A program made the translations under genes and the position numbers. From the IMG/VR virus record IMGVR_UViG_2579778650_000023: a DNA stretch of 51,722 nt; one strand, given 5' to 3'. Every line of letters begins with the position of its first letter. Within the stretch, counting starts at the first letter, position 1. The DNA is from a virus. Its lineage: Duplodnaviria; Heunggongvirae; Uroviricota; Caudoviricetes. Under the pieces are notes generated by a model that did not search any database, had not been told where the DNA came from, and saw only the letters and a list, made by a program, of their open reading frames with translations. Positions 1 to 49,885 of this stretch are shown here, one piece after another.

Positions 1-306
1 CAGAACGGTTCAGATAACCTGATACTTATAAATCGTAAAAAAAACCTTTTTTATCAGAAGATAAGAGATAGAGAATGATTGAACTGTTAAGAATTTAGTT
101 AAAATATAAACTATCAAAGTGCATAATTTTACTTTTTTGGTGACCCAGCTCGGACCTTTGATTCAATCTGGCATAGATATTGGGAAGAGATGAAAAAACC
201 GGAAATCTCAAAAAGTGCGAGGAACTAAACCAAGTGTGCTTACAGTACAAAGACAACTATGATAACCTTTGCTAAGTCAGGTTTTACACTATGGAACAGT
301 TAATAT

Positions 307-1128: not shown

Positions 1129-1603
1129 CACTTCTACATAGAAATTTCATTAATAAACAAGAAATTAGCTTTCTTGAGGACAACTTTACCTAAAGCTGAA
1201 AAGTGCCAATTAGCAAACTTTCATCCCATAAGCTATGATATAGCACTCACTTTATTGATAAATACCGAGGTATTCATGAAAGGTCAGGTCGATATCGAAC
1301 TCCAAAGATTGATACGGGCGCGGTATAACACCGCGGTAGAAAATTGGAGTGAATGGAAATGGTTAGAAATCGGGCATGGCGTCGTCATCATATATCTCGG
1401 TTAAAATCTAAGAGAAAAACATATCGAATTGTGTTGGCTAAAACTGAAAAAGTTGTAGGGAAAATTTACTGCCCCCCTTGTGCTTGTTCTTGTTATTTTT
1501 GTGGTAATCAAAGAATTCATCACGGAGTGAACATTCAAGAGCAACGAGCTTTGCTGCGTTTTACTGATTGACTTATAAAATATTAATCTTTTCGATAATA
1601 AAA

Positions 1604-1622
1604 GGCTCCAATCCTTGGAGCC
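1604..1622 (-). terminator. Rho-independent terminator downstream of the 1587-aa gene
   Basis: Perfect inverted repeat GGCTCCAA-tcc-TTGGAGCC; on the minus strand the hairpin is followed by TTTTATTATCG; lies between convergent genes. Confidence 0.6.
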
Positions 1623-1665
1623 TAAATTGGAAAAACTCTCATTAAAACTATTATTTTCAACTACA

Positions 1666-4600: not shown

Positions 4601-6429
4601 GTAAGAACATATTTAATGGAAAGTAGATCTGAATTACTTACACCTAACTGTTTAAGCAGATCGTAATCAACGTCCTTGCAAGCAAGCCTCAATAAGAAAG
4701 TAAGTCTTTTTAAAAGATTCTGGTCACTACTAAGTAAATATCGTTTAAAGTAATTAAAAAATATGCCTGAATTGTCGGAAAGAAGGACAGCTACCCATAA
4801 CTCGTCTTTCCAAAATTTTGATATTCCTTCTCCACAGACTATTTCTGCGATAAAAGGCTTTATGGACTGGTCATCTAAAAGTAATCGTTCAGATATCCAA
4901 TTCCGAAAACTACGGCGAACAGGAAGTGATTCTCCTATCTTTTCGAAGAACTCGTTATTGTTCGCTTTACGGATATAATCGACGGAAATTTTCTTTTCTA
5001 ATGCCCATTCCTCATATATATCATGTGTAATGAAGTAACCAGCAGCTTCATAGCCGACAATTCCGTCTTTAACTAACGCATCTAAAATTCCAGTATCACA
5101 TGTCGGAGAGACAAAAAATTGGCCCTCACTAGCCCGCTGAAAAGCAGTCGCTAAGAAACACTGCTCCCGAGAAGGTTTATTTTTGACGACAATCTTATTC
5201 CAGAGCTTTTCTTTGAAGCTCGCATAATCGATGCTTTCACCGGTATAGAACCTCAGATATTCACTTAGATAAAATGGATTTTTGATTAGTTCTAATAATC
5301 GAACATCTTGAGGAAGGCTAAATCCATTATTATCAGATAACTCTATTAGCTCGTCGCGTTCAAGGTTCTTTATTACTAAGTTTCCAGGAGTTATCTTATA
5401 AATATCTATGAAAGCATAGTTCAGATCTGCCAAGTAGTTGTTACGGGTTGTGAAAATAACCTGCCATTTATCCTTTATTAAAACAGTCAGGAATTCTTTA
5501 AAAGGAACGATATTGGTCAATTCTAAAAGCTTTTCAGCAGAATCTACGACTATGACTTTACGTAATTCGTCTTGATGAGCATTAGAGAAATCGGCTAAGC
5601 CATGCGCACCGAATAGCTCATTAATGCTGTCTTTTTTAAACTCACTAGCCTTAAAGACATAGAAAGGAGTGCATTGTTTTTCAGCTTCATAAATTTTTTT
5701 GATAACTGCTGTTTTTCCAACCCCACCTTCTCCGCTGACGATGACAATTTTTTTCTGAACTAGATTCTCATGTAGAAGTTCAATGCAATGTCGTCTGTCA
5801 ATTTCAATACTTCTGTCTTTGAACTCTATATTGGTTTGAATTTCATATAAAACATTTTCTGTGTGCTTGCGCTTTTCTTCTAATAAATCAAAGATGCTTT
5901 CATTAAGGGAGAAGAAATGTTTTGCAATCTTTTCATTCTCAACTATTACAAACGGTGATTCAAAAAAACTAGCAACTCTCCATACTATTTCGATACCCGA
6001 CTCATATGCTTTCTGATCAACTTCAATTTTTATTTTGGGATCGTTACTATTTCCGACAGTTTCAAAATAATTATCAGCGTTCTTATCGTCTTCAGGCTCA
6101 TGAGACTTTCTCCCCTGCCCCCACTCTTGATTAGTATAGAAAATGATTTTACTTAATCCTGGATAAGCCTTTTTGCTTTTCCCAATCATTTCTATAAGAT
6201 CAGCTTTGTTATCCGACAATTTTGTGTCATAGAATTTAGATTGCCAACCGATAAGTTCATTATCTTTGGTTATTGGATTAGTTTCGATACCAGATTGATT
6301 CTTATATCTAAATATACCTGCGGGTATTTTGAATTCTTGACAGAACAATAAGTAGCAAAACCACTCAAAATTATCTTGAGGATTCTCATTAAATTTAGCT
6401 TTAAAGTTATCCCAGTTTGGTTTGACCAT
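1666..6429 (-). CDS. Large STAND-type P-loop NTPase (1587 aa): N-terminal domain of about 215 aa, NTPase core, about 1200-aa C-terminal region; Avs/AVAST-like antiviral candidate
   Basis: Walker A GEGGVGKT, Walker B-like VIVVDSAEK, STAND-like sensor motif VIFTTRNN; very long C-terminal region with no recognisable catalytic motif; AT-rich; AGGGG Shine-Dalgarno about 9 nt upstream of the ATG at 6429. Confidence 0.75.
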   Translation of the reverse strand: MVKPNWDNFKAKFNENPQDNFEWFCYLLFCQEFKIPAGIFRYKNQSGIETNPITKDNELIGWQSKFYDTKLSDNKADLIEMIGKSKKAYPGLSKIIFYTNQEWGQGRKSHEPEDDKNADNYFETVGNSNDPKIKIEVDQKAYESGIEIVWRVASFFESPFVIVENEKIAKHFFSLNESIFDLLEEKRKHTENVLYEIQTNIEFKDRSIEIDRRHCIELLHENLVQKKIVIVSGEGGVGKTAVIKKIYEAEKQCTPFYVFKASEFKKDSINELFGAHGLADFSNAHQDELRKVIVVDSAEKLLELTNIVPFKEFLTVLIKDKWQVIFTTRNNYLADLNYAFIDIYKITPGNLVIKNLERDELIELSDNNGFSLPQDVRLLELIKNPFYLSEYLRFYTGESIDYASFKEKLWNKIVVKNKPSREQCFLATAFQRASEGQFFVSPTCDTGILDALVKDGIVGYEAAGYFITHDIYEEWALEKKISVDYIRKANNNEFFEKIGESLPVRRSFRNWISERLLLDDQSIKPFIAEIVCGEGISKFWKDELWVAVLLSDNSGIFFNYFKRYLLSSDQNLLKRLTFLLRLACKDVDYDLLKQLGVSNSDLLSIKYVLTKPKGTGWQSVIQFIHENLDEIGFRNINFILPVIQEWNQRNKVGETTRLSSLIALKYYQWTIDEDVYLSGRDNEKNILHTILHGAAMIKPEMEEILVKILKNKWNEHGTPYFDLMTLILTDLDSHPVWVSLPEYVLQLADLFWYRPLKEKGERYHHMDIEDEFGLFRSHHDYYPESPYQTPIYWLLQSQFKKTIDFILDFTNKTTICFAHSRFAKNEIEEVDVFIEEGKFIKQYICNRLWCSYRGTQVSTYLLSSIHMALEKIFLENFKNADSKVLESWLLFLLRNTKSASISAVVTSIVLAFPEKTFNVAKVLFQTKDFFHFDMNRMVLDRTHKSSLISLRDGFGGADYRNSLHEEDRIKACDDVHRNTHLENLALHYQIFRSENVTEKDAIERQQVLWDIFDKYYNQLPDEAQETEADKTWRLCLARMDRRKMNITTKEKDEGIEISFNPEIDPKLKQYSEEAIKKNSEHMKYMTLKLWASYKREKDERYKNYGMYEDNPQIAIQETKEIINKLNEEEDEDFRLLNSNIPADVCSILLLENFNQLNNEEREYCKDIVLAYSKLPLKEGYNYQVLDGTTSAISALPVIYHNYPVERETIKTILLLTLFNDHSIGMASGRYSVFPSMVIHKLWLYYFDDMQSLLFGFLILKPKYVILSRKIIHESYRQADYDIKKININKVFLNNYKHCISNVIDNKISIDDLGGIDKVDLHILNTAFQLIPVDTVNIEHKQLVSLIVKRFSTSLLSSVREDRVDYALRQSFLERFAYFTLHAPVSDIPDYIKPFLEGFNGSEPISELFKKFILVEDRLNTYTKFWKVWDLFFDKVVTLCKDGDRYWYVDKIIKSYLFAESPWKENSNGWHTFKDNNSQFFCDVSRTMGHCPSTVYSLAKSLNNIASCYLNQGITWLSGILSVNKKLWENKLENDTVYYLECLVRRYINTERERIRRTKQLKEEVLVILDFLVEKGSVVGYMSRENIL

Positions 6430-6503
6430 TTAATTATTCCCCTATTTTTTGTAAATAACTGCCCCTACACAGAGAAATGCACCCTCGATATCGTACTCAG
6501 CAA

Positions 6504-6929
6504 CTATCTTCTTTCTCCATCAGAGCGCTCACGGTCAATCTTTGTCAGCTGCGCATTGAGTTGATGTCCTGTCATTCCATGTTTGTATGCATTGTATTGC
6601 CAGATCACAAACTGTTGTTTGTACCTCCGGTTCTCTTCCTTAAGCTCTTCGATTTCGCTTTCAAGATTCACAATCCTAGCGGCTGCAATGTTCAAACTAG
6701 CTGGACGCGGATTTTTGGGGCCACGGCCTTTAAGCGCCTCTTTCTTTGTTTGATAGGCAGTCACTATTGCCCCATGTGCATTAAGGGACTGTCTTGACGG
6801 CAACTTTCCAACCAATGGTTCTGCCGCCTCACAAATTACTGACCAGGACAGTTTTGGTTCCTGCCATCCTCGAATTAGATTCACGATGGCGTTAATGTCT
6901 CTATTGTCCAGATGCTTAGCCAAGGCCAC
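6504..6929 (-). CDS. Small protein (141 aa), fourth gene of the recombinase operon; coiled-coil-like C-terminus (ESEIEELKEENRRYKQ)
   Basis: ORF start overlaps the stop of the upstream recombinase gene (translational coupling); function unknown. Confidence 0.5.
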   Translation of the reverse strand: MALAKHLDNRDINAIVNLIRGWQEPKLSWSVICEAAEPLVGKLPSRQSLNAHGAIVTAYQTKKEALKGRGPKNPRPASLNIAAARIVNLESEIEELKEENRRYKQQFVIWQYNAYKHGMTGHQLNAQLTKIDRERSDGERR

Positions 6930-8949
6930 CTCCTAACAAAGTTGTCAAATCATCTAACATCACAGCTTCTTCACTTTCTTTGCCTTTTTGCTTGATGGCC
7001 GCAATAGACGTCTTTGCGACAACACGGCGAAGCTGGCTGAAATCATTGCCCCGGAGCTTAATCTGGGCACCATTTTCAATGTCTGGATTCTCTAAAATAG
7101 CGACTAACTCACGAAGCCGGGTGACAGTTTTCTTGTGGTATTGATACCAGCGATCAGCCCCCATCTCGCCGCGTTCTACCGCTGCATCAGCAATACAAAA
7201 CATTCGTTCCGACTTCACCAAACGTTTCTTAATTCGATCCAATATTTCTGTATCCTCGCCTTTGATACAAACCTGCTCAGTACAATTGACGCAATCTCGG
7301 AACTTCTCGCAAGGGCCCATGGTGTAATCATGCACGCAGTAGCCATACTCCGTCACATGGACTGCGGCATGATCTAACGTATTGAACTCTTGAATAGTCA
7401 CAGGAAGGTGCTTAGCCACATCTCCAGCAGGCCCAAATAGACCTTTTGAGGGATCGAGGCGTTCAGACATGCCAACCAACTCATATTCAGTCATGTGGTT
7501 GTAAGCTCGATTCTGTTTCATATCTGCCCGACCAGACCACTTGGCAATTTCCAAGTTTGAGAGCCCACCACGCTGAGCTATGGTGTTAAGTAGGTGCCGA
7601 GCTTGGTGCGAGGTTAATTTAACCCGTTCACCGTTTTCAGCATGGTAATTATAGCGATCAAAGATACTGGCATGTTTTCCATTCAAAGTCTCCCGAGGCG
7701 TCAGATCATTATTAAAGAAGTTATTGGTTGGTTTATACAATTCAATCGGTATACATCGGCGATTCCCGTGGAACTGATTTACATTAAGTGCAAACAAAGC
7801 ATTGCTGTACTTAATTCCCTTGTCTTTATCAAACCACGGAAAACCATCAGGCAATCGCGCCATAGCATGGCGCCACAGGCTTTTTAGTGTGTGCGAACCA
7901 TCTTCTTGAGCTAACCCTCGATTAAAGAGAGAAGAACGACATTGTTTTTTGGATTTACAAGCAAGACCGAGAGCCATACAAGACTGTTCCATTGTCAACG
8001 GCTCATCATCAGCGACATCAGGACAGTTAGCATGGCGGTAAAATTTATCCGGGTGTATCTCAATCCACTTGGCCAGCTGTCGAGCATTCTCAGATAACAT
8101 TTTGGTTCTAGCGATAGCTGTTTTAGCAACGCCAACCATTACAGTGGGTATCCATTTAATGCCCCCTTCATAGCCTTTACCTGCAAAGAAACGCCAACCA
8201 TAGCGTTCTATATCTTCGCTATCGGTTTCAAACACCTCACAATCTGCAGGAAGTGCTAACACTTCAGAAATGCGCGAAGGAGCAGACATCAGCATAGCAA
8301 ACACCGATGTTGTAAATATGTCTCTTTCATCCATTGGATCGTTTGCAAAAATTTCCGCAAGCGCGTTGAGGGCAATATCACTCGGTAGTTTCTTTTCCCT
8401 ATTTTTTTTAGCCTCTCTGCCTGTTTTGTTTTTGTCCTCTGCACGCCTAATGGGATTAACCCAATTTTGCACAGCACTTGATACAAGTCGATTTTCAACG
8501 ACAAACTTAGCCAGCCGCTCAATCTCTCGGCCACAATGATATGCAGCACCATCAGAGTAGTGCTGCCTTGCCAATTCAGATGCTTCATCCAGTACTGAAA
8601 TCGACAGACCATCAATATTTGCATTTCCATTTACTTGAATTAAAGCCGCCTCAATCGCACGGAGGGCCTTACTTTCATTCTTTGTCCCTGTGGGATGATG
8701 TCCCTGCTGGTAACGAAAATAGGCTTTGGCGAAATCAATGAACGCAGGGTCTTGTACCTCTCCCTGCATAGGTGTTCGCGTAATAATGCCTAGCTTGGCA
8801 AACACTGTTATGTTTGGCCAAACAGGAGCTTCCCAATTCAGATCGGAACCGAATACAATCAATTGTACTCGGCACTTGGATATGAATACTCCAAGGTTTT
8901 GTGCTGCTGTCAGCGTAGCCTTTGGTTTAAACTGGAAAATCTCAGCCAT
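6916..8949 (-). CDS. Tyrosine recombinase-family protein (third of trio, about 677 aa)
   Basis: C-terminal HQARHLL ... NRAYNHMTEYEL motifs resemble the H-x-x-R and catalytic Tyr of integrase-family proteins; start chosen at ATG 8949 with GGGAG Shine-Dalgarno, overlapping the stop of the upstream gene (alternative start 8994). Confidence 0.6.
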   Translation of the reverse strand: MAEIFQFKPKATLTAAQNLGVFISKCRVQLIVFGSDLNWEAPVWPNITVFAKLGIITRTPMQGEVQDPAFIDFAKAYFRYQQGHHPTGTKNESKALRAIEAALIQVNGNANIDGLSISVLDEASELARQHYSDGAAYHCGREIERLAKFVVENRLVSSAVQNWVNPIRRAEDKNKTGREAKKNREKKLPSDIALNALAEIFANDPMDERDIFTTSVFAMLMSAPSRISEVLALPADCEVFETDSEDIERYGWRFFAGKGYEGGIKWIPTVMVGVAKTAIARTKMLSENARQLAKWIEIHPDKFYRHANCPDVADDEPLTMEQSCMALGLACKSKKQCRSSLFNRGLAQEDGSHTLKSLWRHAMARLPDGFPWFDKDKGIKYSNALFALNVNQFHGNRRCIPIELYKPTNNFFNNDLTPRETLNGKHASIFDRYNYHAENGERVKLTSHQARHLLNTIAQRGGLSNLEIAKWSGRADMKQNRAYNHMTEYELVGMSERLDPSKGLFGPAGDVAKHLPVTIQEFNTLDHAAVHVTEYGYCVHDYTMGPCEKFRDCVNCTEQVCIKGEDTEILDRIKKRLVKSERMFCIADAAVERGEMGADRWYQYHKKTVTRLRELVAILENPDIENGAQIKLRGNDFSQLRRVVAKTSIAAIKQKGKESEEAVMLDDLTTLLGGGLG

Positions 8950-10504
8950 TGGCGATTGCTCCCTGTGGACTAAGCTCTTCACGACGTTTTGCACAACGCA
9001 TGATCACATCTGCCACCGCGATAATGCTGCGATCAAGTATGGCAGCAATCTGGATATCGCCGGTTATCTCTTTCACCCGTTCACGCTCGTTGAGCAGCCC
9101 CTGATAGACATCCTCATGGGGGCCATCCAGCCAAGGCTGGAAATGCATGCAGGTGTAGCAAGGAATAGGAACATTGGCACCACAAAAACCATGCTCCCCA
9201 CAAGTACCTACACCATGGCCTATCTCGGTCCTAATGCGACTGGCAGGGTCGTTACCTCGATGCGCGCCCCTCTCTGAATCGACAAGTACCCCGACAAAGG
9301 CCTGGGCGTATGGTGCTAGTTGGAAGCCAACCGCCTCATCAAGCTTTTTCACATGTTCGGGAATGTTCTTGATGTAAACGCCGGCGTTTTGGGTATCCGT
9401 ATGGTCAAGTAGTTCCGCAATCACCAATTCGCCAAATCCTTCCTTGGCAGCTCGTGTGCCCGTGGTATAGCGAAAACGACGAGCATTGATATGTAATAGC
9501 TCACCAGTACGTTCTGACCGGATATCAGATTTTTCTATGATGTACTGGAGTGTGTTGGTTATCTTTGCTGCGGGAATGTGGAGTTTGTCGGTAGCAAACA
9601 GTTGGCGGAATTCATAAGGAGACTGGACGGTAGCTAACACATCAAGATCTGGAAACAGAGGGATTTGCTGTCGGTCATCTTCCTGCAATTCAAACCCCAG
9701 ACGATTCTCAACCATTGCAATTGCATTCTTTGCCTGAGTGTTCAGAATTACCCATAGTTCTGGTGATATCGCAAAGAGCTTGAAGTTTATTCGAAAAGAA
9801 CTGCTGCGCTGCTTGGCTCGCGGCACATTCAAAACATAGAATGGCTCTCCCTTTCCATTTTTACCGCAAAGCACATCGACTGCATGAAGCAGCGAGATCT
9901 GGATGGGTCGTCGTCCTGTATGACTGATGCTAAGTGCCAAAGCCAACTCCGCTATGGTAATTAAGCTCTTTTCATAAGCCCGAACAGCCCCCTCGTTAAA
10001 CGCTGTCAGCTCATTATCCGTCAGAGGCCCTTCTTGAGGATCCTGACGCTTAACCGCATCTCCCTTACGATTACCCTTCAGCCTCCAGCCATCCAACAAA
10101 CTGATCACATCTTTGCTGATACCGGGATAACCAAGCTGGTGCCAAGTTCGAAGAAAGCCACGTATAGTTGCCAGATACCATTCCGTCGCAGGCAATAGTC
10201 TCGCCCGATAATTAATCAATACCGTATCAGTAATTTCTCTCGCATGAGTCTCTCGCAGCATGTGCTGAAACCGCATAATAATGTTCAGAGTATGAGGAGC
10301 AGATTGAGTAGAAGCATAAAATGCTAGCGTGCGTAGGCAGCCATTGAGCCCCTCACCTGACAAGTAATGGTGAATATCTACAAGAGTGGCGTGGGTATTT
10401 TTATCCAATATCCACGATGTATCATATAAGTGAAAGAAGTAGCCATTAGCCCTAGCACAGATTCGCTCGGACACTAATGCCGGTAGGAACTTACTCGTCA
10501 TCAT
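8942..10504 (-). CDS. Tyrosine recombinase-family protein (second of trio, 520 aa)
   Basis: Integrase-like motifs (HTGRRP..., RFRYTTGTRAAK, ...GVYIK); start overlaps the stop of the first recombinase gene. Confidence 0.6.
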   Translation of the reverse strand: MMTSKFLPALVSERICARANGYFFHLYDTSWILDKNTHATLVDIHHYLSGEGLNGCLRTLAFYASTQSAPHTLNIIMRFQHMLRETHAREITDTVLINYRARLLPATEWYLATIRGFLRTWHQLGYPGISKDVISLLDGWRLKGNRKGDAVKRQDPQEGPLTDNELTAFNEGAVRAYEKSLITIAELALALSISHTGRRPIQISLLHAVDVLCGKNGKGEPFYVLNVPRAKQRSSSFRINFKLFAISPELWVILNTQAKNAIAMVENRLGFELQEDDRQQIPLFPDLDVLATVQSPYEFRQLFATDKLHIPAAKITNTLQYIIEKSDIRSERTGELLHINARRFRYTTGTRAAKEGFGELVIAELLDHTDTQNAGVYIKNIPEHVKKLDEAVGFQLAPYAQAFVGVLVDSERGAHRGNDPASRIRTEIGHGVGTCGEHGFCGANVPIPCYTCMHFQPWLDGPHEDVYQGLLNERERVKEITGDIQIAAILDRSIIAVADVIMRCAKRREELSPQGAIANG

Positions 10505-11753
10505 TCTTCATGTCCTTTGGCAAGCGAGTGCCATTACCTTCCTGCAATGCCAAAGCGGCCTCAAACCCTTTTTGCTGAATGAAACGCTTGTTGTAAGTCG
10601 CTGCAGTTCCCGAACCATCTCTCCAACCCATTAAGTAAGAACGGAGCTGCTCTTGGCGTTCCTCGCTGACTTGCTCATTCATGGCATCCATTCTTTCTGA
10701 AAACTTTCGATTCCATGTATGGCGGAACGAATGCCCTGTCGCTGCATACAATTGTGGTGATACAGCCCTGACCACGGAAAAGATTTTATGATATCCCCCT
10801 TTAGAGATAGGGTTTCCAACTGTTGGCCCTAGCTTATAAGTGACAAAGAGGTAGTCATTTTTCTTTGCATTTCGGACTTTCCGGCGATCTTGGATGATAT
10901 AACTATGTAGTTCTTGAACTAGGGATTCAGCCAATGGCAAGAGCCGGTCTCTCGTTTTAGCATGGGGCTGATTGGTTCTAGAATCAGCTAGCTCATCTGC
11001 TCGCCTAAATATACGGATCCTGTTAGTACTAAAATCAATATCTTGTATTCTGATGTTTAACAATTCCCCACCTCGAATACCAAGATAAAACAGAAGTAAG
11101 ATCATCAGCCGATTGCGACGCTGAACATCTATTGAGAAAGGATTTAAATCTGATCCCGGCTTGATAACTTCAAATAGCGTATCCAATTGCACATCATTCA
11201 ATGACCTGTCTTGCCATTCACTGTTTCTGCGCTTTTTCGACGGTCGACGTATCTTTATGTGCTGCAACATTTCATTGATCTGTTCGACAACGCCCGGTTC
11301 TGCCGTCTTTAAAATATGCATTGCATACCAACCTAAATATTTGGCATATGTTGTCAGCCGGGAATGCAATGTTCCGTTATCAACAGTATCGCTACTCGCA
11401 TCTTCCAACCAAGGTGTAGAAGAAGCAACTAACAGCTTCTTTCCCTGCTTGCGCTGAGCAAAATCCCGCAGATCGTCCAGTTCGTAAGGTTTGAAGAAAT
11501 TTTTGGTCAAAAATCGCTGTTCTAGGTCAATGCCACGATTATCTAAGAAGCGTAGCAGCACAACAAGGTTGCTAGCTGCTGCTAGCATAGTTGAAAAAGC
11601 ATCCCCTCTGTTGCGGATTTGGGTTGTTAAAAAAAGAGTCGGGTAATACACGGGAAGGCAAGAAGAACGATCCACCACCATGCAGTATCGCTCGCCACTG
11701 TCCATGACAAATGTTGTAACCTTGTAGTTATCCTTCATGTGCCCATACCCCAT
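10491..11753 (-). CDS. Tyrosine recombinase/integrase (first of trio, about 415-420 aa)
   Basis: LGIRGGELLNIRIQDID (box I Arg) and GHSFRHTW (H-x-x-R) motifs, C-terminal Tyr region; true start may be the internal Met at 11738. Confidence 0.7.
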   Translation of the reverse strand: MGYGHMKDNYKVTTFVMDSGERYCMVVDRSSCLPVYYPTLFLTTQIRNRGDAFSTMLAAASNLVVLLRFLDNRGIDLEQRFLTKNFFKPYELDDLRDFAQRKQGKKLLVASSTPWLEDASSDTVDNGTLHSRLTTYAKYLGWYAMHILKTAEPGVVEQINEMLQHIKIRRPSKKRRNSEWQDRSLNDVQLDTLFEVIKPGSDLNPFSIDVQRRNRLMILLLFYLGIRGGELLNIRIQDIDFSTNRIRIFRRADELADSRTNQPHAKTRDRLLPLAESLVQELHSYIIQDRRKVRNAKKNDYLFVTYKLGPTVGNPISKGGYHKIFSVVRAVSPQLYAATGHSFRHTWNRKFSERMDAMNEQVSEERQEQLRSYLMGWRDGSGTAATYNKRFIQQKGFEAALALQEGNGTRLPKDMKNDDE

Positions 11754-26094: not shown

Positions 26095-26142
26095 CACTGT
26101 TTATCCATACAGCTAAAAATAATACTGTATACAAACACAGTA
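26091..26142 (+). promoter_or_regulatory. SOS-regulated promoter with two tandem LexA boxes upstream of the dinI-like gene
   Basis: -35 TTGACA (26091-26096); LexA box 1 CTGTttatccatACAG (26097-26112) in the spacer; -10-like TAAAAA; LexA box 2 TACTGTATACAAACACAGTA (26123-26142). Confidence 0.7.
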
Positions 26143-26155
26143 TAGAGGGACTTTT

Positions 26156-26404
26156 ATGCGTATTGAAATCTGCATAGCCAAAGAAAAAATGACTAAAATG
26201 CCAACCGGTGCTGTGGATGCGTTAAAGGAAGAATTAACCCGACGCATCAGTAAACGTTATGACGATGTAGAGGTGATCGTAAAAGCCACCAGCAACGATG
26301 GCCTTTCTGTTACACGCACCGCAGATAAGGATTCTGCAAAAACTTTTGTTCAGGAGACTCTGAAAGATACCTGGGAATCTGCTGACGAGTGGTTTGTTCA
26401 CTAA
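26156..26404 (+). CDS. DinI-like DNA-damage-inducible protein (82 aa)
   Basis: [11 protein letters not shown]...[18 protein letters not shown] closely resembles DinI (MRIEV...ILQETWESADDWFV); GAGGG Shine-Dalgarno. Confidence 0.85.
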
Positions 26405-26815
26405 TTAACACGTAAAATCGGTAACGGCTGGAAATCATTCAATACTCGCACTATCGAAAGTTCGCCAGCCAGCCGCAGCACGTTCTTGCATACGACGTGG
26501 CTGCGGCTTCCAACATTAGACAAATAACTCTTTAAATTGCTTTCAAATTATTTCGTTTGAATGCCAGTAGCAGGAAATCGTTTATATAGGGTTTAGAGGA
26601 TGTCATGGGGAAACTGATTAATGTTAAAATGATTACTCCATTAGATAACCTATATCACCCCCTCCGACAACTCTCGGCGCAATAACCAATTTCGTCAGGA
26701 TTCCTCTGGTTTAAACGGTTCATATGCATAAAAACATTATACTCGCGGTATTTCATCCATTACTGCAGAAGGAAAAATGCGCTGGAAATTATCAAAATCT
26801 CCAGCGTACTAGCAA

Positions 26816-27022
26816 TTAACTGACTAACTCATCTTGAGGAGTAACTACATCTGGTTTTAAGGAAGGCTTGATGAATTTTTTACCGTCATATGACCAGCCA
26901 ATACCAACATCTCCAACACATTTAACTATATCCGCTTTTTCTGACTTAAACTCTGACTTACCATCCCATACAACAAGATTTGTAACGACACCATTTTGTA
27001 CGACTGCATAAATATCGCTCAT
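26816..27022 (-). CDS. Small tail-fibre-associated protein (68 aa), function unknown
   Basis: ATG overlaps the tail fibre stop (TAATG), suggesting translational coupling. Confidence 0.45.
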   Translation of the reverse strand: MSDIYAVVQNGVVTNLVVWDGKSEFKSEKADIVKCVGDVGIGWSYDGKKFIKPSLKPDVVTPQDELVS

Positions 27023-28122
27023 TACTGATACTCCCACACAAGAATATATCCCTGATTTCCATTATTTCCTGTCGCTGGACCTGATGACGCCTTATTGTAT
27101 TTACCTGTCCCGCCAATACCGTATATCCCAAGCATAGTAGTGGTTATACTTTCAACGCCAATCGCCTGATCATCACCAAGTCCAAGTGCCCCACATAAAT
27201 TTGATCGTGAAACTGAATGGAACAGAATCCCTTGCCCTGTAGGAATTGGTGCTTCTGTTGCACTTCCCCCTGAAAATGGAGGTACCTGCTGAACTTGAGT
27301 TGATCCCCTTCCTCCCGGACATACAAGCAAATCACCAAAGCTTGTATTCCCGCCGTCACCTCCAGAGCCTCCTGGTCCTGTTCCTGCTACACCACCGCTT
27401 CCAATAGTTACTTGCACGGATTCAGGTATAGACTGATAAAAAAATGCTTTAGCATATGCCCCGTTGGAACCGGCAGCACTTACACCACAGTTACCAGATG
27501 CAGTTGCCGACAAATTACCACTGGCACCACCTCCGCCAACGGCTTCCACTATAATTTTCGTTACACCAGGTGATTTGATATAAGTCCCAGATGATCCAAA
27601 TGCCTGAACCCCCAAAAGCCTTCCTGTTCCATCCCCAAGTGTTAAATATTTTAGAGTTTCCGATACGTTTTTTTTACTTAAAATTTCCCTGCCATTTTGA
27701 GTCAGCGCTGTCATATCCATTGTTCCGGCACCTGTAAAAAATGCCAGCCCATCCGGTATTCCTGTTAAGCTCGACAATGATGTCAGATTATCATTTTTAT
27801 CCTGTTTATCATTCAGAATGTCTGTCATTCCCAGGTTTTCGAGAGCCGTTTGCACAGTGCCATCCGATTTGATATCGCCAAACGGATTCTTGCGGCTTAA
27901 CAGCAGCGCACGAAGCGCGGTAAGAAGCTGATCGTGCCGCCCCTTCTCCAGGCTGGCACCGGATGCCTCCACCACGCTGCAGAGTTCTTCCTGCAACATG
28001 TCAAAGTAGTCATCATCCAGAACGGTGGCAGGCGTGCCGGTCTGGGGGTTACCACGGGTAAAACCGTTCTTACCCGCGCCGAACTTATCCTTCTGCGCGG
28101 TTTTCGTGTCTATACGATGCAT
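27022..28122 (-). CDS. Phage tail fibre protein (366 aa)
   Basis: N-terminus [47 protein letters not shown] is typical of tail fibre N-domains; Gly-rich C-terminal repeats. Confidence 0.8.
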
Positions 28123-28125
28123 GGA

Positions 28126-28710
28126 TTACTCCGGATATTTAAAAATTACGTAGGTATGCGAAGGGCAGAGTTTGTTAAGCACACACTCGACAACGGTGTC
28201 GCCCCAGATACGCAGTGCGGAATCACAGGGATCACCACATGTCATCCAGGTGGTGTTGGTGGCAGCTGGCATGTTGACCTGCCAGTAATACCGCCATTCC
28301 GGCGCATTCACCGCGTCAGTACAGGCCGATGAGCAGGTGAAGGTGCTTTTGTCGTATCGCGTGATGGTGGCATCTGGTCTGCCCAGGGCAGCAAGCTGTG
28401 CAAGATAAAAATCCTCGTTGATGCCGCCCGCCAGGTTAACCTTCGCATCCAGCCGTTGCTGACGCTGGCGAAGGGTCTGTGTCCCTGCGGGAATACATTC
28501 ATCCGGCAGGCCGCACAGACGCTCCCAGCGGTTTATCAGTTCGGTGGTGGTGCGCGGATCCAGCTCCCGCATCAGGGCATCCGCACGCTGATGAACACGG
28601 GTTAATGACGGTGCCGCACCTGCAATCGCCGGATCGCTGGCTGACCACGCCGGACCGGGCGGCAGCAGTGCCGACAACAGACGGATGTAATCATCGTTTG
28701 TCACGTCCAT
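28126..28710 (-). CDS. Phage tail/baseplate protein (Mu gp48-like, DUF2313/YmfQ-like)
   Basis: Position between the baseplate J-like gene and the tail fibre; sequence type recalled from Mu-like prophages. Confidence 0.6.
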
Positions 28711-30719: not shown

Positions 30720-31798
30720 CAGAACGGGTCCTCCTGTACTCTGGCTTTTTTCTTTTTCCGCGCGCCGGGGGCTTCGGGTTCAGGCAGATAAGCATCAGGT
30801 GGGCCGACACGGATTTCCGTCAGGGTGCCATTCTGGTCCTGAGTAAACGTGACTTCCGAGACAAGCAGTTCGGTATTGTCGAAACCACAGACCGGATCGA
30901 AGACAATCACCCGCTGGTTGGGCTGCCACAGCGTACCGTTACCCTGTCGCCAGCCCTGCACCACATAGGTGGTTTCATCCGTCCGCGCCGCCCGTTGCCG
31001 GGCTTCAAAGTCCGCACGGGCAATACAGCCTGCCCCCGTAGCCTGCCCTGGCTGCCTGATATACATCGGACGGTAACGGGCAATAAATGCGTCCTCTGTG
31101 CGGGCCCGCAGCGCGGTGGTGGTGGCCTCACCGAAATCATCGTCGTTTCCGGCACGCTGCCCCGCCACCTGGTAAACTGAAAACCGCTCCCGGATACTCT
31201 TCTCCGTATCACAGGAAAGGATATTTTCCCCGAGTACCAGCGCAGTATGTGCCCGCGTTGAGCCAATACCGCCAATCACCAGCCTGCCGTGCGGGTCGTC
31301 GTAAGCCAGTGCCTGCTGCTGACCGAGTATTTTGTTGATTACCTCAATCACCGTTTCACCGTGATCAGGCTGAACATCAGGAATAACACCCGACGGCGCA
31401 CCGCTGTTCACCACCTCAATGCCGAAAGGCGCAGCAAGCGCCTGCGCAATCTGCACCAGCGAGCGTCCGTTAAACTGTGTCGGTTCGGCTGCACAGTCAA
31501 TCAGGTCAGCCGTCAGACTGCGTCCGGCAATACCGGTACTGACCGAACGGGCATCGTAACGAACGGGCGTCGCCTCCACCCAGCCGGTGATCACCAGCTC
31601 ATCACCAATCAGTACCTCCACTTTTGAACCGTTTTTAATGCGCGGCTGAAGCGTAGTGATGCCCTCATCTCCCGGCCACTGGCGGGTGATCTCCACACTG
31701 AAATCCCGCGCCAGCCGTTCAATACCGGCACCGATGCGCACCGATGTCCAGCCATTCCACTCCCGGCCATTTACCCGTAGCGTGACATTGTCGTTCAT
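30719..31798 (-). CDS. Baseplate hub protein (Mu gp44 / P2 gpD-like, 359 aa)
   Basis: Position and size downstream of the DNA circularisation protein gene. Confidence 0.65.
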   Translation of the reverse strand: MNDNVTLRVNGREWNGWTSVRIGAGIERLARDFSVEITRQWPGDEGITTLQPRIKNGSKVEVLIGDELVITGWVEATPVRYDARSVSTGIAGRSLTADLIDCAAEPTQFNGRSLVQIAQALAAPFGIEVVNSGAPSGVIPDVQPDHGETVIEVINKILGQQQALAYDDPHGRLVIGGIGSTRAHTALVLGENILSCDTEKSIRERFSVYQVAGQRAGNDDDFGEATTTALRARTEDAFIARYRPMYIRQPGQATGAGCIARADFEARQRAARTDETTYVVQGWRQGNGTLWQPNQRVIVFDPVCGFDNTELLVSEVTFTQDQNGTLTEIRVGPPDAYLPEPEAPGARKKKKARVQEDPF

Positions 31799-33168
31799 TG
31801 CACTGGCACCTTCAGAGGGATCACCGGCACAAAGCCGGGATGCGTAATGGCATTACGCCGGATAATGTCCGCGTCACGCGCCGCGTTATCAAACCAGGTC
31901 GCCGCCAGCACCAGCGCGGGTAAAACCTCATCCGGTGTGCGCTGAATGATCCGTGCAGACTGTTCAAGGCGCGTGTTGATATCCGCATTCAGATCTGCTT
32001 TCACCCGGCGCAGCGCCAGAAACAGCGCATCGCTGGTTGTACGGGACAACTCCTTATCAATTGCCGTATTCAGTGTGTCGCGAATGTCAGTCAGTTCTTC
32101 CCACGTCGGCAGGTCAACCGTGTTTTTCACCGCCGGTGCATTGTTCAGTGCCGGATGCGTGACGGAAGGCCAGCCAGTGCTCTGCGCGGGTGTTGTTGCC
32201 TGCCCCACTGCGGAATTCTGCATCACCGCGGAAGTTGTTGGCGCAGGCAATCGGGTGACGGCATACGCCGCTTCGCTGATTGCGGTCGTACGAAGGGTGC
32301 TGGCAACCACGTTACGCTGCTGCGTCGCCGTGGCGGTGGTTTTACTGTCCGTTTTCCAGACGCCGCGCGGTTGCAGATCGCTGCCGAGGCTGACACCGGA
32401 AAGCGTTTTGATCATGGTGACCAGGTCGCTGGCGTTACCATAAAGGCGTTTCCCGGTACGCCACATTTTCTGCACCTGCTCAACGAAATTTTTGCCTGAC
32501 GATGGCGGCGGCAGAAGTACCGAGATATCCCCCTGCAACAGCCTGGCGGCATCCGATACGGCAGAATCCACCACTTTCATCGCATCAGAAACATACCCCA
32601 GCATTATGCTGGCATTACCGATAACGTCGTTCTGCACGAAATCCGCTACACCATCGATACTGAAACCGCTGAAGCTGTCACTGATGCAGTCATCCAGTGC
32701 AGAACAGGATGACATCAGCGTCTGCGCCGTCGCCGCACCTGATGTGGGGTAAGAGAGTTCTCCTGCTTCGACAAACTTCAGGTCAAAGCGGACAATACGC
32801 CCTTCACTTTTCGATGTGCTGACCCGAACTTCCCCGTCAACACAGACTTTCAGCTCACCATATGTCGGGTGGACAAGCGTGCCGGGACCGGGTTTATTCA
32901 GCGCTTCAATCAGGCGATCGCGCTGGTCAAAGCAGTCATCTCCCACCACATAAGCTGTGATGGACGGGCGGAAAGTGACTTTTCCCAGATCTTCGGTATA
33001 GGGCTTGTCGCGGTTCGGGTATTCATGTGTTTCCACACGGCGACCGGTTCCCGCACTTTCTTCTTCAACCTTAAACGGCACACCTCGAAATGATGCTTCA
33101 AGTAGCTTTTCACGCCAGCCACTTCGAGAATCAGAGGATAGGTACGAAGAAATATGAGAAAAATCCAT
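31795..33168 (-). CDS. Phage DNA circularisation protein (Mu gp43/N-like, 457 aa)
   Basis: N-terminal ...EASFRGVPFKVEEESAGTGRRVETHEYPNRDKPYTEDLG is the characteristic DNA-circulation N-terminal domain. Confidence 0.75.
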   Translation of the reverse strand: MDFSHISSYLSSDSRSGWREKLLEASFRGVPFKVEEESAGTGRRVETHEYPNRDKPYTEDLGKVTFRPSITAYVVGDDCFDQRDRLIEALNKPGPGTLVHPTYGELKVCVDGEVRVSTSKSEGRIVRFDLKFVEAGELSYPTSGAATAQTLMSSCSALDDCISDSFSGFSIDGVADFVQNDVIGNASIMLGYVSDAMKVVDSAVSDAARLLQGDISVLLPPPSSGKNFVEQVQKMWRTGKRLYGNASDLVTMIKTLSGVSLGSDLQPRGVWKTDSKTTATATQQRNVVASTLRTTAISEAAYAVTRLPAPTTSAVMQNSAVGQATTPAQSTGWPSVTHPALNNAPAVKNTVDLPTWEELTDIRDTLNTAIDKELSRTTSDALFLALRRVKADLNADINTRLEQSARIIQRTPDEVLPALVLAATWFDNAARDADIIRRNAITHPGFVPVIPLKVPVQ

Positions 33169-33181
33169 GGCGTCACCTCAA

Positions 33182-33210
33182 ATAAAAACCGCGTGTAAAC
33201 GCGGTTTTTT
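33182..33210. terminator. Rho-independent terminator downstream of the moron gene
   Basis: AAAACCGCG-tgtaaa-CGCGGTTTT with flanking A/T runs (bidirectional-looking). Confidence 0.65.
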
Positions 33211-33224
33211 ATTAGGTAATAAAA

Positions 33225-33713
33225 TTAACGATCATAATCAACATTATGAGTATCTATTCTACATGATGAATAAGTAATTCCGCTTTCACCACTAATATTT
33301 ACGCCAGCCTTTACCTTCCCTGTTTTCGTAACATCAACAAAGAATTGCCCTCTTGGCATTTTAAATGCAAAAGAGAAACCAATAATTTCCGAGTCAAAGT
33401 TATTTTCATCCTCACTAATTGGTACAATAAAAGTCAATGGTGCAGATTGTGAGTTATTTTCAAAATCAAAAGCACCAATGCTTTTATTAAACTCGTAGGA
33501 TGCTTTTTTTATTAAAAGAGTTCCACTTGCCGACTTTGCTGGGCATATTACAGACAGTCTATTTATTCCCTCTACATCTAGATCTATATTCTTATCCGCT
33601 GAAGTTTTAACGTTATCTATAAAGTATGTAGCAAGCTGCTTTTCCGTTACTGGCTTCGCAAAGGAGTTTAATGGCAGTCCTACAGCCAACAACAATATAA
33701 ACATTTTCTTCAT
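33225..33713 (-). CDS. Secreted hypothetical protein (moron) with Sec signal peptide, about 162 aa
   Basis: MKKMFILLLAVGLPLNSFA signal peptide; AGGAG Shine-Dalgarno before ATG 33713; visibly AT-rich compared with the flanking GC-rich tail genes; own terminator. Confidence 0.65.
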   Translation of the reverse strand: MKKMFILLLAVGLPLNSFAKPVTEKQLATYFIDNVKTSADKNIDLDVEGINRLSVICPAKSASGTLLIKKASYEFNKSIGAFDFENNSQSAPLTFIVPISEDENNFDSEIIGFSFAFKMPRGQFFVDVTKTGKVKAGVNISGESGITYSSCRIDTHNVDYDR

Positions 33714-33777
33714 ATTCTCTCCTACATTCAGCACAAACTTTACCACTCAATAACCCTACTTGATTAAAGTAGTTATA

Positions 33778-35679
33778 TTATCGTCTGAATGGAGAATACC
33801 CCACATCGTGCGTGATTTTCATCAGGGGATCGGCTTTGCCCGGTACATCAATTATCTTCATACCTGGCGGAGCATTCTCGAACGTGACTTTCAGCTCGCT
33901 GTGCTGTGTCATGGAAGAAGATGGATTCAACAGCGGAACATTGGGTTTGTACTGACTCAGGCTGGCCTGATACTGCTCGTACTCTTTACGATCAAAAAAA
34001 GGCGTCCAGTCTGAAGCCAGAAACAGCCCTTTATTATCCAGCCAGTTAACCGTATCTTCAGGAACAACACTTTCCAAAGTATCTTTAACCGGCTCATACA
34101 TCAGGGTTCCCAGAAAACCATATACCCCGGCCTTCCCGATAAAGCCGCGGCCTTTCCCCATCAATCCCGTTTCTGCCGATACCTTCCCCAGCGTACGCAT
34201 CTCTCTGGTCACTGCGGTAATGGATTTGGTAACGTCAGCAACCCATTTGGTTGCCATAAACAGGGCAATCGCTTTCAGAACAGTTTCCCATCCCCCCATC
34301 GCCTGCGCCGTTTCATCCACCACGTGCCAGACTTTTTTTATGACAGGACCTACGGTTTCCCAATTATCAATAATGAGGTAAGCGCCACCAACCAGAAGAG
34401 CAATCAGCCCCTTAGCAGGCGTCATATTCATCACACCGCCGAGAACTTTCATGATTCTGGACAAAGAGCCTGCAGCGGCCCCCACTGTCAGTAAAGCCAG
34501 ACCGATTTTAGCAATGGTCTTAACGAGCTCCGGGTTTTCACGGACAAACGTTCTCACTTCCTCAAGGAGCGGTTTTACCGCTTCAAGACCATCATTAACC
34601 TCAGGAAGAAACGTTTCCCCCAGAGTGGAAGAAATGGCATCAAGTTGATTTTGCAGAAGTAAAAGCTGGTTTTCCGTCGTCGCTGCCCTCGAAGCATATT
34701 CCTTCTGCATCGAACTGCCATACTGCTGGGAATCCGCAACCCGCCTGAAGTTGGTACGCAACAAATCAAGGTTAGTCAGCAGAGGTGCTATCGCGCCCAG
34801 AGACTCTTTCCCGAACAGGGCATTCAGCACAGCTGCCTGTTTTTCTTTAGGCACTTTAGCCATCGCATCCAGTACAGACAGCATGGTTCCCCGGGCATCT
34901 TTCTGCATATCAGCAGCTAATTTCTTCGGATTGATCCGCAGAAAACGTAATGCCTGTTTCTGCGATTTTGTCGCGGAATTTCCCGCGGTCAGGGAAAGCA
35001 TGAAGTTCTTGATCCCTGTGGCGGCAATTTCTGACTCCACGCCCATCCCGGCAATGGTTGCCCCCATTGCCGCGATTTCGCCGGAAGCCACACCTGCAAC
35101 ACCACCTAAAGGACCAATACGCGTAACAATATCGGAGATTTTCTTCGCATTCGCCGGGCCGGTATTACCAAGGTAGTTGATTTTGTCAGCCAGCCCGGCC
35201 ACTTCATCCTGCGTCATATTAAACGCAGTACGCCACTGGGCCATCATCTGCCCGGACTCTTCAGCCGTGGTATCAAAGGCCACGCCCATCTTCACCGCAT
35301 CAGTGGCAAACTGCATCAGTTCATCACGTGCAATCCCGGCCTGACCGCCAGCCGCCACAATTTCCGCGATCCCGTCTGCAGACATGGGAAGCTCAGTAGA
35401 CAAAGCGCGTACCTGCTCCGTCATGGCCTTAAACGCATCCGGCGTATCCAGACCGTTCACCACTTTGCGGACATCAGCCATCTTCGATTCAAGGGTGATG
35501 GCTGATTTTACAGGGAGTGCCAGTGCCCCCATTATTGCAGTACCCGCCCCGGCAGCGCCCAGAGCAAGGCTGGAGACTTCTTTCTGAAACCCCTTAAGCT
35601 GACGCTGCATACCTTTAAGCGGGCCGGATAGCCTGTCAACGGCGGTGATGATGGCTTTAAGCTGAAAATTATCAGCCAT
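33778..35679 (-). CDS. Phage tail tape measure protein (633 aa)
   Basis: Long Ala/Gly-rich alpha-helical protein with tape-measure character, between the tail assembly chaperone and baseplate genes. Confidence 0.8.
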   Translation of the reverse strand: MADNFQLKAIITAVDRLSGPLKGMQRQLKGFQKEVSSLALGAAGAGTAIMGALALPVKSAITLESKMADVRKVVNGLDTPDAFKAMTEQVRALSTELPMSADGIAEIVAAGGQAGIARDELMQFATDAVKMGVAFDTTAEESGQMMAQWRTAFNMTQDEVAGLADKINYLGNTGPANAKKISDIVTRIGPLGGVAGVASGEIAAMGATIAGMGVESEIAATGIKNFMLSLTAGNSATKSQKQALRFLRINPKKLAADMQKDARGTMLSVLDAMAKVPKEKQAAVLNALFGKESLGAIAPLLTNLDLLRTNFRRVADSQQYGSSMQKEYASRAATTENQLLLLQNQLDAISSTLGETFLPEVNDGLEAVKPLLEEVRTFVRENPELVKTIAKIGLALLTVGAAAGSLSRIMKVLGGVMNMTPAKGLIALLVGGAYLIIDNWETVGPVIKKVWHVVDETAQAMGGWETVLKAIALFMATKWVADVTKSITAVTREMRTLGKVSAETGLMGKGRGFIGKAGVYGFLGTLMYEPVKDTLESVVPEDTVNWLDNKGLFLASDWTPFFDRKEYEQYQASLSQYKPNVPLLNPSSSMTQHSELKVTFENAPPGMKIIDVPGKADPLMKITHDVGYSPFRR

Positions 35680-49132: not shown

Positions 49133-49885
49133 TTATCTCGTCACTTTTCTTAATTGCGCCTCAGCATATGCTTCTTCCTGCCAGCACTTTGTCACCAGTT
49201 TATCAATGACATCTGCATATCCTTTGTACCACTGATAATCCGTCAGGTCTGGTACCAGCTTCTGGACATGATGCCGCGCCAGTGTGGTTGGCAAACGGCT
49301 AAACCGGTTTCCATTGCAACGCCCACAAATCTTATAAACAGGCGTGCCATGAAGCCGGGTTCTTTTTTCATCCAGGACAATACCTTTACCCTTACACCCT
49401 CTGCACGCTGTGCTGACTTCTCCCTTACCATGACAATGCTGACATAGTTCCTTCACCCACTCTTCCTTGATAACAGATTCCCCGCTTCTGGAGTGTTTCA
49501 CCACTTCGCGCAATACATTATGAAATCCAGTACCAGCACAATGCTCACAGCGAGCCTTACTTGCCGCAGACCTGGAATAATCAGCAAAGGCAAAATTCAC
49601 AAGGTAAGGGATGAGCTGTAACCGGGTTTCTTCACTCAATTTATTCAATGTCGGATTATCCAGTGCCATCGCGTAATTGAGCAGACCTTCAATCGCAAAC
49701 TGAGGATCCTGAACACCAACTTTTGCCAGGAATAAGGCAAATCCAAGCGGTGCTTTCGACTGCACCATCCCCTGCGCAGCCATCACATCCGTAATCGTTA
49801 AACCACCCGAGCCTGTCGCCGGTGCGTCATCGCTCAGTTTTGGAGATTTTGGGGAGTAATATTTTGGTAAGGCTTCAAGGTTCAT
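49133..49885 (-). CDS. Late-gene antitermination protein Q (lambdoid Q family, 250 aa)
   Basis: Cys-rich zinc-binding region (CEHCAGTG...CQHCHGKGE...CRGCKGKG...CGRCNG) typical of Q antiterminators; located just upstream of the lysis genes. Confidence 0.75.
   Translation of the reverse strand: MNLEALPKYYSPKSPKLSDDAPATGSGGLTITDVMAAQGMVQSKAPLGFALFLAKVGVQDPQFAIEGLLNYAMALDNPTLNKLSEETRLQLIPYLVNFAFADYSRSAASKARCEHCAGTGFHNVLREVVKHSRSGESVIKEEWVKELCQHCHGKGEVSTACRGCKGKGIVLDEKRTRLHGTPVYKICGRCNGNRFSRLPTTLARHHVQKLVPDLTDYQWYKGYADVIDKLVTKCWQEEAYAEAQLRKVTR

Follow-up and report, generated by a model that had tools for sequence, protein, structure and literature searches.

A predicted exported β-barrel protein in a moron-type cassette at the tape measure/gpN junction of an SfV/SfIV-like Escherichia coli prophage

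Morons in tail operons are already known, and one more such cassette is unsurprising in itself. The cassette described here lies in the IMG/VR record IMGVR_UViG_2579778650_000023, a stretch of 51,722 nucleotides (nt) of the Escherichia coli chromosome that is referred to in its full length as the window, and encodes a small protein of the PHROG 5586 family that carries a predicted export signal and is modelled as an eight-stranded β-barrel. The prophage in the window adjoins dusA, with the integrase adjacent, and combines a lambdoid early region with Q, an HK97-type head, and a Mu-type contractile tail, which corresponds to the architecture of SfV, SfIV, and phiP27. An earlier note on this DNA had singled out positions 33182-33777 as an inserted, AT-rich moron between the tape measure and DNA-circularisation genes, and this span fits almost exactly the net insertion that emerges from the comparison with related phages (33183-33787). 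The strand was not stated in that note; the cargo gene lies on the minus strand.

The cassette and the protein that it encodes

The cargo gene (33225-33713; this and the other genes and signals of the locus described below are on the minus strand) is a coding sequence of 489 nt that starts with ATG, ends with a TAA stop codon at 33225-33227, and encodes a pre-protein of 162 amino acids (aa). The identical coding sequence of enterotoxigenic E. coli (ETEC) H10407 is annotated in RefSeq as WP_000738066.1. A Shine–Dalgarno sequence, AGGAGA (33718-33723), can be read off the DNA four nt 5' of the ATG, and the region 33657-33713 encodes residues 1-19 (MKKMFILLLAVGLPLNSFA), a predicted Sec signal peptide that would be cleaved off in front of Lys20; the translated open reading frame (ORF) continues with KPVTEK, the expected start of the mature protein. 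The upstream neighbour is the tail tape measure protein gene (33778-35679; 633 aa, PF10145), and the downstream neighbour is a gene for a Mu gpN-like DNA circularisation/baseplate protein (31795-33168; 457 aa, PF07157 DNA_circ_N), here called gpN, whose ribosome-binding site, GAGGTG (33174-33179), lies 3' of the cassette terminator. The GC content of the cargo gene is 34.4% (26% at third codon positions, GC3), whereas that of the tape measure gene is 51.6% (GC3 54%) and that of the gpN gene 55.4% (GC3 59%), and the GC profile shows the cargo gene to be the sole deep AT trough of the prophage structural region. The earlier note had named the signal peptide, the strong Shine–Dalgarno sequence, the contrast in composition, and the two flanking genes, and all of these hold, the signal peptide on the features of its n-, h-, and c-regions and a hydrophobicity heuristic, and the neighbours on their Pfam matches.

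The gene is followed by an intrinsic terminator (33180-33212), whose stem begins 15 nt past the stop codon; it consists of perfect 11-bp arms (33184-33194 and 33199-33209), a 4-nt loop (33195-33198), and a minus-strand U-run, in part shared with the stem, that ends five nt 5' of the gpN ribosome-binding site. The fold has an energy of -20.4 kcal/mol (z = -4.4), and none of 200 shuffled sequences folds as well; these values and the inverted repeat confirm the hairpin that had been described in the earlier note as lying immediately 3' of the gene. As its A-tract and T-tract are symmetric, the terminator is potentially bidirectional. A simple terminator scanner missed the hairpin, probably because the stem runs into the T-tract. 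Rfam returned only sub-threshold matches on both strands, all anchored on the terminator hairpin, and an RNA element at the cassette was rejected on these grounds.

Comparison with empty sites shows that the cassette is inserted DNA. In SfIV, whose flanks are 98% identical to those of the window, just 24 nt separate the tape measure stop codon from the gpN start codon, and in SfV, whose tape measure gene is not similar to that of the window, the junction measures 45 nt. E. coli prophages resembling SfIV likewise combine flanks of 98% identity with an empty site. Pairwise alignment to SfIV and to the empty-site locus L028 defines the net insertion given above. The adjoining stretch 33121-33182, which comprises the gpN ribosome-binding site and the first ~16 gpN codons, is a diverged patch that seems to travel with the cassette, and beyond it homology to most relatives picks up again at ~33093-33120. 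SfIV is an isolated phage whose host range has been tested (PMC3851460), and since it lacks the gene, the gene is dispensable for particle formation and specifies no essential part of the virion. The view of the gene as a dispensable insertion relative to otherwise 98%-identical phages, and with it the moron-like extra DNA of the earlier note, is therefore well supported by these alignments. Neither a target-site duplication nor terminal inverted repeats were found around the insert, so that there is no sign of an origin by transposition, and exchange via flanking homology appears more likely. The moron described in the SfIV paper is a different one, located between Q and the lysis genes.

gpN varies at its N-terminus, and this variation is linked to the cassette (window 33121-33168, and loci L012, L028, L035, and L037). 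In the window and in the SfIV type, the conserved W(R/K)(E/D)(K/R)L...ASFRGVPF is preceded by an extension of ~16 residues (MDFSHISSYLSSDSRSG... / MDLSSFPTRPSLLSSSSG...), and SfV-type gpN genes start at MTWKDRLQDASF.

The signal peptide is laid out as MKK, MFILLLAVGLPL, and S-F-A followed by Lys, with two lysines in the n-region, a 12-residue hydrophobic core with a mean Kyte–Doolittle (KD) value of 2.68, and S-F-A at positions -3 to -1 of the cleavage site. There is no further transmembrane (TM) segment, the maximum 19-aa KD value past residue 30 being 0.96. The signal peptide is conserved in all seven family members tested, mostly with Ala–Lys at the junction, and each of the seven has exactly two cysteines in the mature part. 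By these heuristics, the product is predicted to be exported by Sec, cleaved by signal peptidase I (SPase I), and released into the periplasm. The homologue P0007 (Shigella/Escherichia) has within residues 12-19 a possible lipobox, LTSC, which overlaps the aligned SPase I site AQA/K, and some family members may be lipoproteins rather than soluble proteins.

The protein matches PHROG 5586, which has no assigned function, over its full length (E = 2.6e-85, residues 1-161 of 161), as do 14 of 14 aligned family members, none of which has a Pfam match. For the cargo protein itself, NCBIfam gave no match, PADLOC-DB 2.0 no family at E <= 10, and a sequence search of the PDB nothing below E = 0.1; one sub-threshold pectate-lyase-like match in the sequence libraries was treated as noise. 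Members of the family are few, and all come from Enterobacterales: a word-indexed search of 5.8 billion proteins retrieved ten family proteins (18 when rerun with the family profile), an exhaustive HMMER search of 1.84 billion representatives retrieved 17, and a scan with five family sequences found the family encoded in three of 185,579 species representatives, namely S. flexneri, E. coli, and Candidatus Pantoea haifensis.

The AlphaFold (AF2) model reaches a pLDDT of 84.5 (pTM 0.78) and consists of an N-terminal helix and an eight-stranded antiparallel up-and-down barrel of the calycin (lipocalin–avidin) type. An alignment of five sequences had given a pLDDT of 40, and the higher value was obtained once distant homologues from the hidden Markov model (HMM) search had been added. 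In the model, one conserved cysteine lies at the end of strand 1 and the other within strand 8, and as these strands should pair to close the barrel, the two cysteines (Cys57 and Cys151) would form a disulfide. Foldseek found nothing at E <= 0.001 in the PDB or in BFVD. An outer-membrane barrel of the Ail/Lom/OmpX kind was rejected on the strength of the 5-10-residue strands, the missing match to any outer-membrane protein profile, and the two conserved cysteines; the C-terminus (...NVDYDR), which is polar, variable, and without a terminal aromatic residue, likewise speaks against it. The earlier note had assigned no function to the protein and had proposed profile searches and structure prediction, of which the former gave PHROG 5586 alone, with no function attached, and the latter the confident barrel.

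The junction as a site of alternative cargo

The place that the gene occupies was surveyed in 171 IMG/VR tail modules, collected by searching with three gpN sequences that differ widely. The tape measure/gpN junction is empty in 83 of them and occupied in 88, and the survey, taken together with E. coli genomes, yields about ten unrelated cargo families. The barrel family (PHROG 5586) accounts for 26 loci, a signal-peptide protein for 21, and a protein with an N-terminal TM segment for 16; a TM–OB-fold protein (five loci) and a two-TM protein (four loci) are encoded on the opposite strand, and a second signal-peptide protein occurs at three loci, a TM–bPH_2 protein at two, and a small multi-TM protein and a DUF7424 lipoprotein at one each. 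The other occupied loci hold single, fragmentary, or doubtful ORFs and are left out of this list of families. The cargo seen at the junction in E. coli genomes includes a cytoplasmic bPH_1 protein, an OB-fold protein (tRNA_anti-like) with a TM anchor that is encoded on the opposite strand, a signal-peptide protein of 164 aa, and a protein of 176 aa with an N-terminal TM helix. Loci of the hotspot include L009:3788-4165, L010:3835-4281, L035:3934-4446, L037:3903-4433, and L063:3974-4420.

These genes share features of design. The E. coli cargo types examined have a GC content of 31-38%, and a terminator adjoins the cargo gene in all five cassettes examined (that of the window and four with other cargo); for co-oriented cargo, the common order is terminator, fewer than ~10 nt, gpN Shine–Dalgarno sequence, and ATG. 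By hydrophobicity and lipobox heuristics, about eight of the ten credible cargo families have a signal peptide, a lipobox, or a TM helix, and only the bPH_1 protein and a HIRAN protein look cytoplasmic; against a background of ~30%, this envelope bias has a binomial P of ~0.002, a value to be read with the caution that the loci are not independent and the predictions heuristic. PADLOC gave no match for four other hotspot cargo proteins. The tape measure/gpN junction of SfV-like prophages is thus a multi-allelic, envelope-biased cargo hotspot, of which the cassette in the window is one allele rather than a one-off. No description of this hotspot was found in the searchable literature, and the earlier note had seen neither the hotspot nor the tie of the family to the junction across diverged tails. 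The empty-site comparison, the multi-allelic and envelope-biased hotspot, the fold of PHROG 5586, and this tie are what is new beyond that first reading.

The homologues that could be located, at 34-49% identity, all lie directly 3' of a tape measure gene or directly 5' of a DNA_circ_N gene in Mu-type tails (P0007, P0011, P0013, P0014, P0015, P0016, and P0018, one of them with a HIRAN gene in between). Compared with the window, the tail proteins of these modules show 44-89% identity and the cargo proteins 34-49%. At the four loci measured, the homologues have a GC content of 37-42% compared with 47-57% for their neighbours, and a canonical terminator before gpN is kept in three of four homologous loci, with L094 as the exception. 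PHROG 5586 is therefore positionally tied to the tape measure/gpN junction across diverged tails. Between two E. coli alleles, the ratio of nonsynonymous to synonymous substitution rates (dN/dS) is 0.82 in the cargo gene but 0.21 in gpN and 0.09 in the tape measure gene, all on small counts. By these ratios and by its lower identity, the cargo protein evolves faster than its neighbours.

The gene for the HIRAN-domain protein (195 aa; L098:2387-2974) separates the tape measure gene from that of the barrel homologue P0018, so that the site can hold two cargo genes side by side. The cargo protein of L182 (153 aa, MKKVLLITGILGGFTSSAVSA...) may be a very distant relative of the barrel family: its profile weakly matches the C-terminal third of that family (hhalign probability 47%, E = 2e-4), and it has a C-terminal cysteine in a similar place.

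The most distant relatives, at 25-29% identity, are found on phage-plasmid-like contigs beside ParA, toxin–antitoxin pairs, and a cI/S24-type repressor, and one of them adjoins an IncFII RepA; these surroundings are maintenance and immunity regions. One Shigella locus (L005:4483-4588) retains P0007, its terminator, and the first ~15 codons of gpN, followed by the end of an IS1 element (GGTAATGACTCCAACTTACTGATAGTGT), so that in this remnant gpN is cut just past its start and the prophage is truncated, with the cargo gene retained. Many Shigella members of the cluster are on contigs of ~5 kb.

Phage vB_EcoM-720R4 carries the 651-bp region of the cassette at 100% identity, and 101 of 5426 complete E. 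coli genomes (~2%) have the region as well, ETEC H10407 among them; 1094 of the 5426 genomes match a junction query, mostly via gpN alone, and 99 match across the entire occupied junction. More than 1000 contigs encode the exact protein, several of these being labelled Salmonella enterica, and the family as a whole is present in ETEC H10407, Shigella, and Salmonella lineages. E. coli PEC122 has an IS1 inside the region matched by the 651-bp query, and a gene copy of 99.4% identity resides on a conjugative plasmid of 205 kb (hits H2 in NZ_CM168021.1 and H48 in NZ_CP126947.1). Neither the protein accession nor phage vB_EcoM-720R4 is mentioned in searchable papers.

Two further parts of the window lie apart from the cassette. 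Positions 1-11753 form a second mobile island beside uvrA, of which the stretch 1-6600 has a GC content of 31-38%; the island contains an AbiGi-like gene (307-1128), a gene for a full-length Avs4 STAND defence protein (1666-6429; PADLOC bit score 2345), two large ORFs with no Pfam or PADLOC match (6916-8994, 692 aa; 8942-10504, 520 aa), and a tyrosine integrase gene (10491-11753, minus strand). By annotation, the ETEC H10407 prophage at the same site has a serine recombinase beside oppositely oriented tail-fibre-assembly genes, a layout that resembles a Mu G-segment-like invertible host-range switch and corresponds by homology to L004:12168-14973 to ~26100-28700 of the window.

Transcription and possible roles

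The cassette is probably best understood as carrying an accessory exported envelope protein in moron-type form. It agrees with the moron of Juhala and Hendrix in being extra DNA between genes that adjoin each other in closely related phages, of differing composition and with its own terminator. The same prophage encodes a Q-type late antiterminator (49133-49885, minus strand; PF03589, E = 1e-53), and since Q is present, late transcripts could, on the pattern of lambdoid phages, pass the strong terminator 5' of gpN, in line with classical moron logic; Q-modified late transcription would then proceed into gpN, and non-antiterminated transcripts would end at the hairpin.

A mechanism can be outlined for this accessory protein, although the part of it that concerns exclusion, a block of phage entry at the level of the envelope, is offered tentatively and is more doubtful than the overall interpretation. 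The cassette, made up of ribosome-binding site, gene, and terminator, would sit at a recombination hotspot of a dusA-integrated SfV/SfIV-like prophage and supply a precursor of 162 aa that is exported by Sec and cleaved after Ala19. The mature protein would be a soluble periplasmic eight-stranded barrel with the N-terminal helix as a cap, stapled shut by a disulfide between the two conserved cysteines, and would not be part of the virion. Tape measure and gpN proteins traverse the periplasm at infection in phages with Mu-type and related tails. The barrel may bind a component that crosses the periplasm in this way, for example an ejected tape measure or gpN-type protein or a phage- or competitor-derived periplasmic enzyme; such binding would block genome entry and protect the lysogen or the infected cell, as other tail-operon exclusion morons do. 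A role in blocking entry is favoured because of the export signal, the envelope-biased hotspot, the linkage to tape measure and gpN, the rapid evolution, and the precedent set by HK97 gp15.

A bolder and unlikely extension would make PHROG 5586 the first example of a hitherto undescribed class of exclusion proteins, periplasmic barrels stapled by a disulfide that catch the tape measure or gpN proteins ejected from contractile tails of the Mu type, and the junction an “entry-defence” hotspot of alternative injection blockers. Such a reading would account for the link to the junction, for the fast evolution, and for the persistence of the gene in degraded Shigella prophages. If DNA entry is indeed blocked, the cargo proteins would be a set of new exclusion proteins against contractile-tailed temperate phages and would offer a means of studying the passage of tape measure or gpN proteins through the periplasm; if it is not, they remain lysogenic-conversion candidates in enteric pathogens. 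In either case, an uncharacterised family restricted to phages and phage-plasmids now has a confident fold and clear export signals.

Several observations weigh against an independently expressed entry-blocking protein. A strict scan of the coding strand found no consensus sigma-70 promoter 5' of the cargo gene, and comparison by eye found no shared promoter upstream of the homologous cassettes; a relaxed scan gave a weak candidate extended -10 element, TGgTAAAGT (33737-33745), with a poor -35. The sibling cassette L037, with other cargo, has a promoter-like TTGTAA-16-TGnTAGAAT. As no consensus promoter precedes the cargo gene, expression from the repressed prophage is an inference. The autonomous promoter–gene–terminator cassette of the earlier note is thus found as to gene and terminator but not as to a consensus promoter, and its candidate for lysogenic conversion or exclusion is sustained by the accessory, foreign-composition, terminator-bounded cassette and the export signal but not by a consensus promoter of its own. 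The homologue in L094 is spaced 16-17 nt from both neighbours, lacks a terminator, and leaves no room for a promoter, so that it must be co-transcribed with the late genes. The conserved position across diverged tails could equally mean a phage-cycle function tied to tape measure or gpN, and the dN/dS contrast rests on just ten substitutions. The envelope-targeting calls are hydrophobicity heuristics rather than SignalP or TMHMM predictions, no known exclusion, defence, or inhibitor family was found to resemble the protein in sequence or specifically in structure, and the modelled barrel is a generic fold that is little informative on the ligand.

The same evidence bears on the alternatives. 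The protein could be a late-expressed periplasmic protein that serves the phage, made only from the Q-dependent tail operon and active in the lytic cycle, without being a lysogenic-conversion gene; it might mask or neutralise an envelope component and thereby spare progeny from adsorbing to lysing cells and debris, comparable to T5 Llp, or it might block superinfection during the lytic cycle. This explanation draws on the lack of a convincing promoter for the gene itself, its orientation and tight placement within the late operon, the exact position that homologues keep amid tail proteins of 44-89% identity, and the arrangement in L094. We nonetheless regard it as unlikely, because a strong terminator lies directly 5' of the gpN ribosome-binding site in four of five homologous cassettes, which would be odd unless some transcription stops there, and because distant homologues occur in the maintenance or immunity regions of phage-plasmid-like contigs, outside late operons. 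It is also hard to reconcile with the Shigella copy kept in a remnant with an IS1-cut gpN, and with the hotspot cargo that lies on the opposite strand with its own terminator, which indicates that the site hosts independently transcribed genes. A protein of the virion or of tail assembly would suit the position inside the tail gene block and the shared orientation, but this is highly improbable: a cleavable signal peptide takes the protein out of the cytoplasm, where tails assemble, SfIV and SfV form particles without it (PMC3851460), unrelated alternatives including opposite-strand genes occupy the site, and the composition is foreign to the operon. The signal peptide and the absence from SfIV and SfV effectively exclude it.

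A conversion or fitness factor unrelated to phage is distinctly unlikely, although the calycin-like barrel might bind a small hydrophobic or other ligand, or inhibit an enzyme of host or competitor origin that acts in the periplasm, such as a lysozyme, a protease, a bacteriocin, or a type VI secretion system (T6SS) effector, with a benefit for the bacterium in the gut or in a host. An exported protein with two conserved cysteines that occurs in pathogenic lineages (ETEC H10407, Shigella, and Salmonella) would suit this role, and lambda bor and lom are precedents for envelope morons in host interaction (PMC3594210). There is, however, no Pfam or solved-structure match, the signature motifs of calycins and MliC not having been directly looked at; the family is found only in phage and phage-plasmid contexts, in three of 185,579 species representatives, whereas a useful ligand binder would be expected on chromosomes as well; and the positional tie to tape measure and gpN would be left unexplained. 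That the ORF arose by chance in AT-rich intergenic filler, as its annotation merely as “hypothetical protein” might allow, has almost no likelihood. Homologues at 25-49% identity share invariant motifs, the match of all 14 members to PHROG 5586 is accompanied by a confident AF2 model, and the Shine–Dalgarno sequence is strong and the signal peptide conserved; conservation and fold together refute it.

Comparison with known systems

The full-length match to PHROG 5586 names the family, and as this PHROG has no assigned function, the match offers no explanation of what the protein does. Calycin-like eight-stranded barrels, including the MliC/PliC lysozyme inhibitors, resemble the model at the level of a generic fold (4-14% identity in the alignments, no Pfam match), and the cargo protein differs from them in its extra N-terminal helix. 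No calycin or lipocalin–avidin family signature or profile was found with Pfam, the PDB sequence search, or Foldseek, nor was the MliC/PliC lysozyme inhibitor profile matched, the signature motifs of the latter not having been directly looked at.

T5 Llp, the Cor proteins of phi80, N15, and HK022, and Ltp of TP-J34 are, like the cargo protein, small phage proteins exported past the inner membrane, and they halt infection at the receptor or DNA-injection step. Ltp acts via the incoming tape measure protein. The Shigella homologue P0007, with its possible lipobox (LTSC), would come closer to these proteins than the protein of the window, which has no lipobox cysteine and is hence predicted to be soluble; there is no sequence relationship between either of them and this group. 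The Ltp protein of the Streptococcus thermophilus phage TP-J34 has been characterised as an exclusion lipoprotein exposed on the host cell surface (PMC3952083). Lambda lom and bor are likewise prophage cargo near or within the late genes and encode exported envelope proteins (PMC3594210), but Lom is an outer-membrane barrel of the Ail/OmpX family and Bor a lipoprotein, whereas the cargo protein looks soluble and periplasmic.

The case for placing the cargo protein in the superinfection-exclusion class is circumstantial and consists of the predicted export, the envelope-biased hotspot, the site in a tail operon, and the apparent fast evolution. HK97 gp15, the product of the first moron to be described, has its gene beside that of the tape measure protein and prevents genome entry, an effect that depends on the tail of the incoming phage (PMC3594210). 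It is a small YebO-related protein of the inner membrane, in contrast to the predicted soluble periplasmic barrel of 143 aa, which has no Pfam match and no similarity to gp15 in sequence. Its gene lies at the chaperone/tape measure junction of a siphovirus tail, whereas the cargo gene occupies the tape measure/gpN junction in a contractile tail of the Mu type. In both phages, however, a single-gene cassette of foreign composition has been placed in the tail operon, adjoining the tape measure gene, and encodes a product for the cell envelope.

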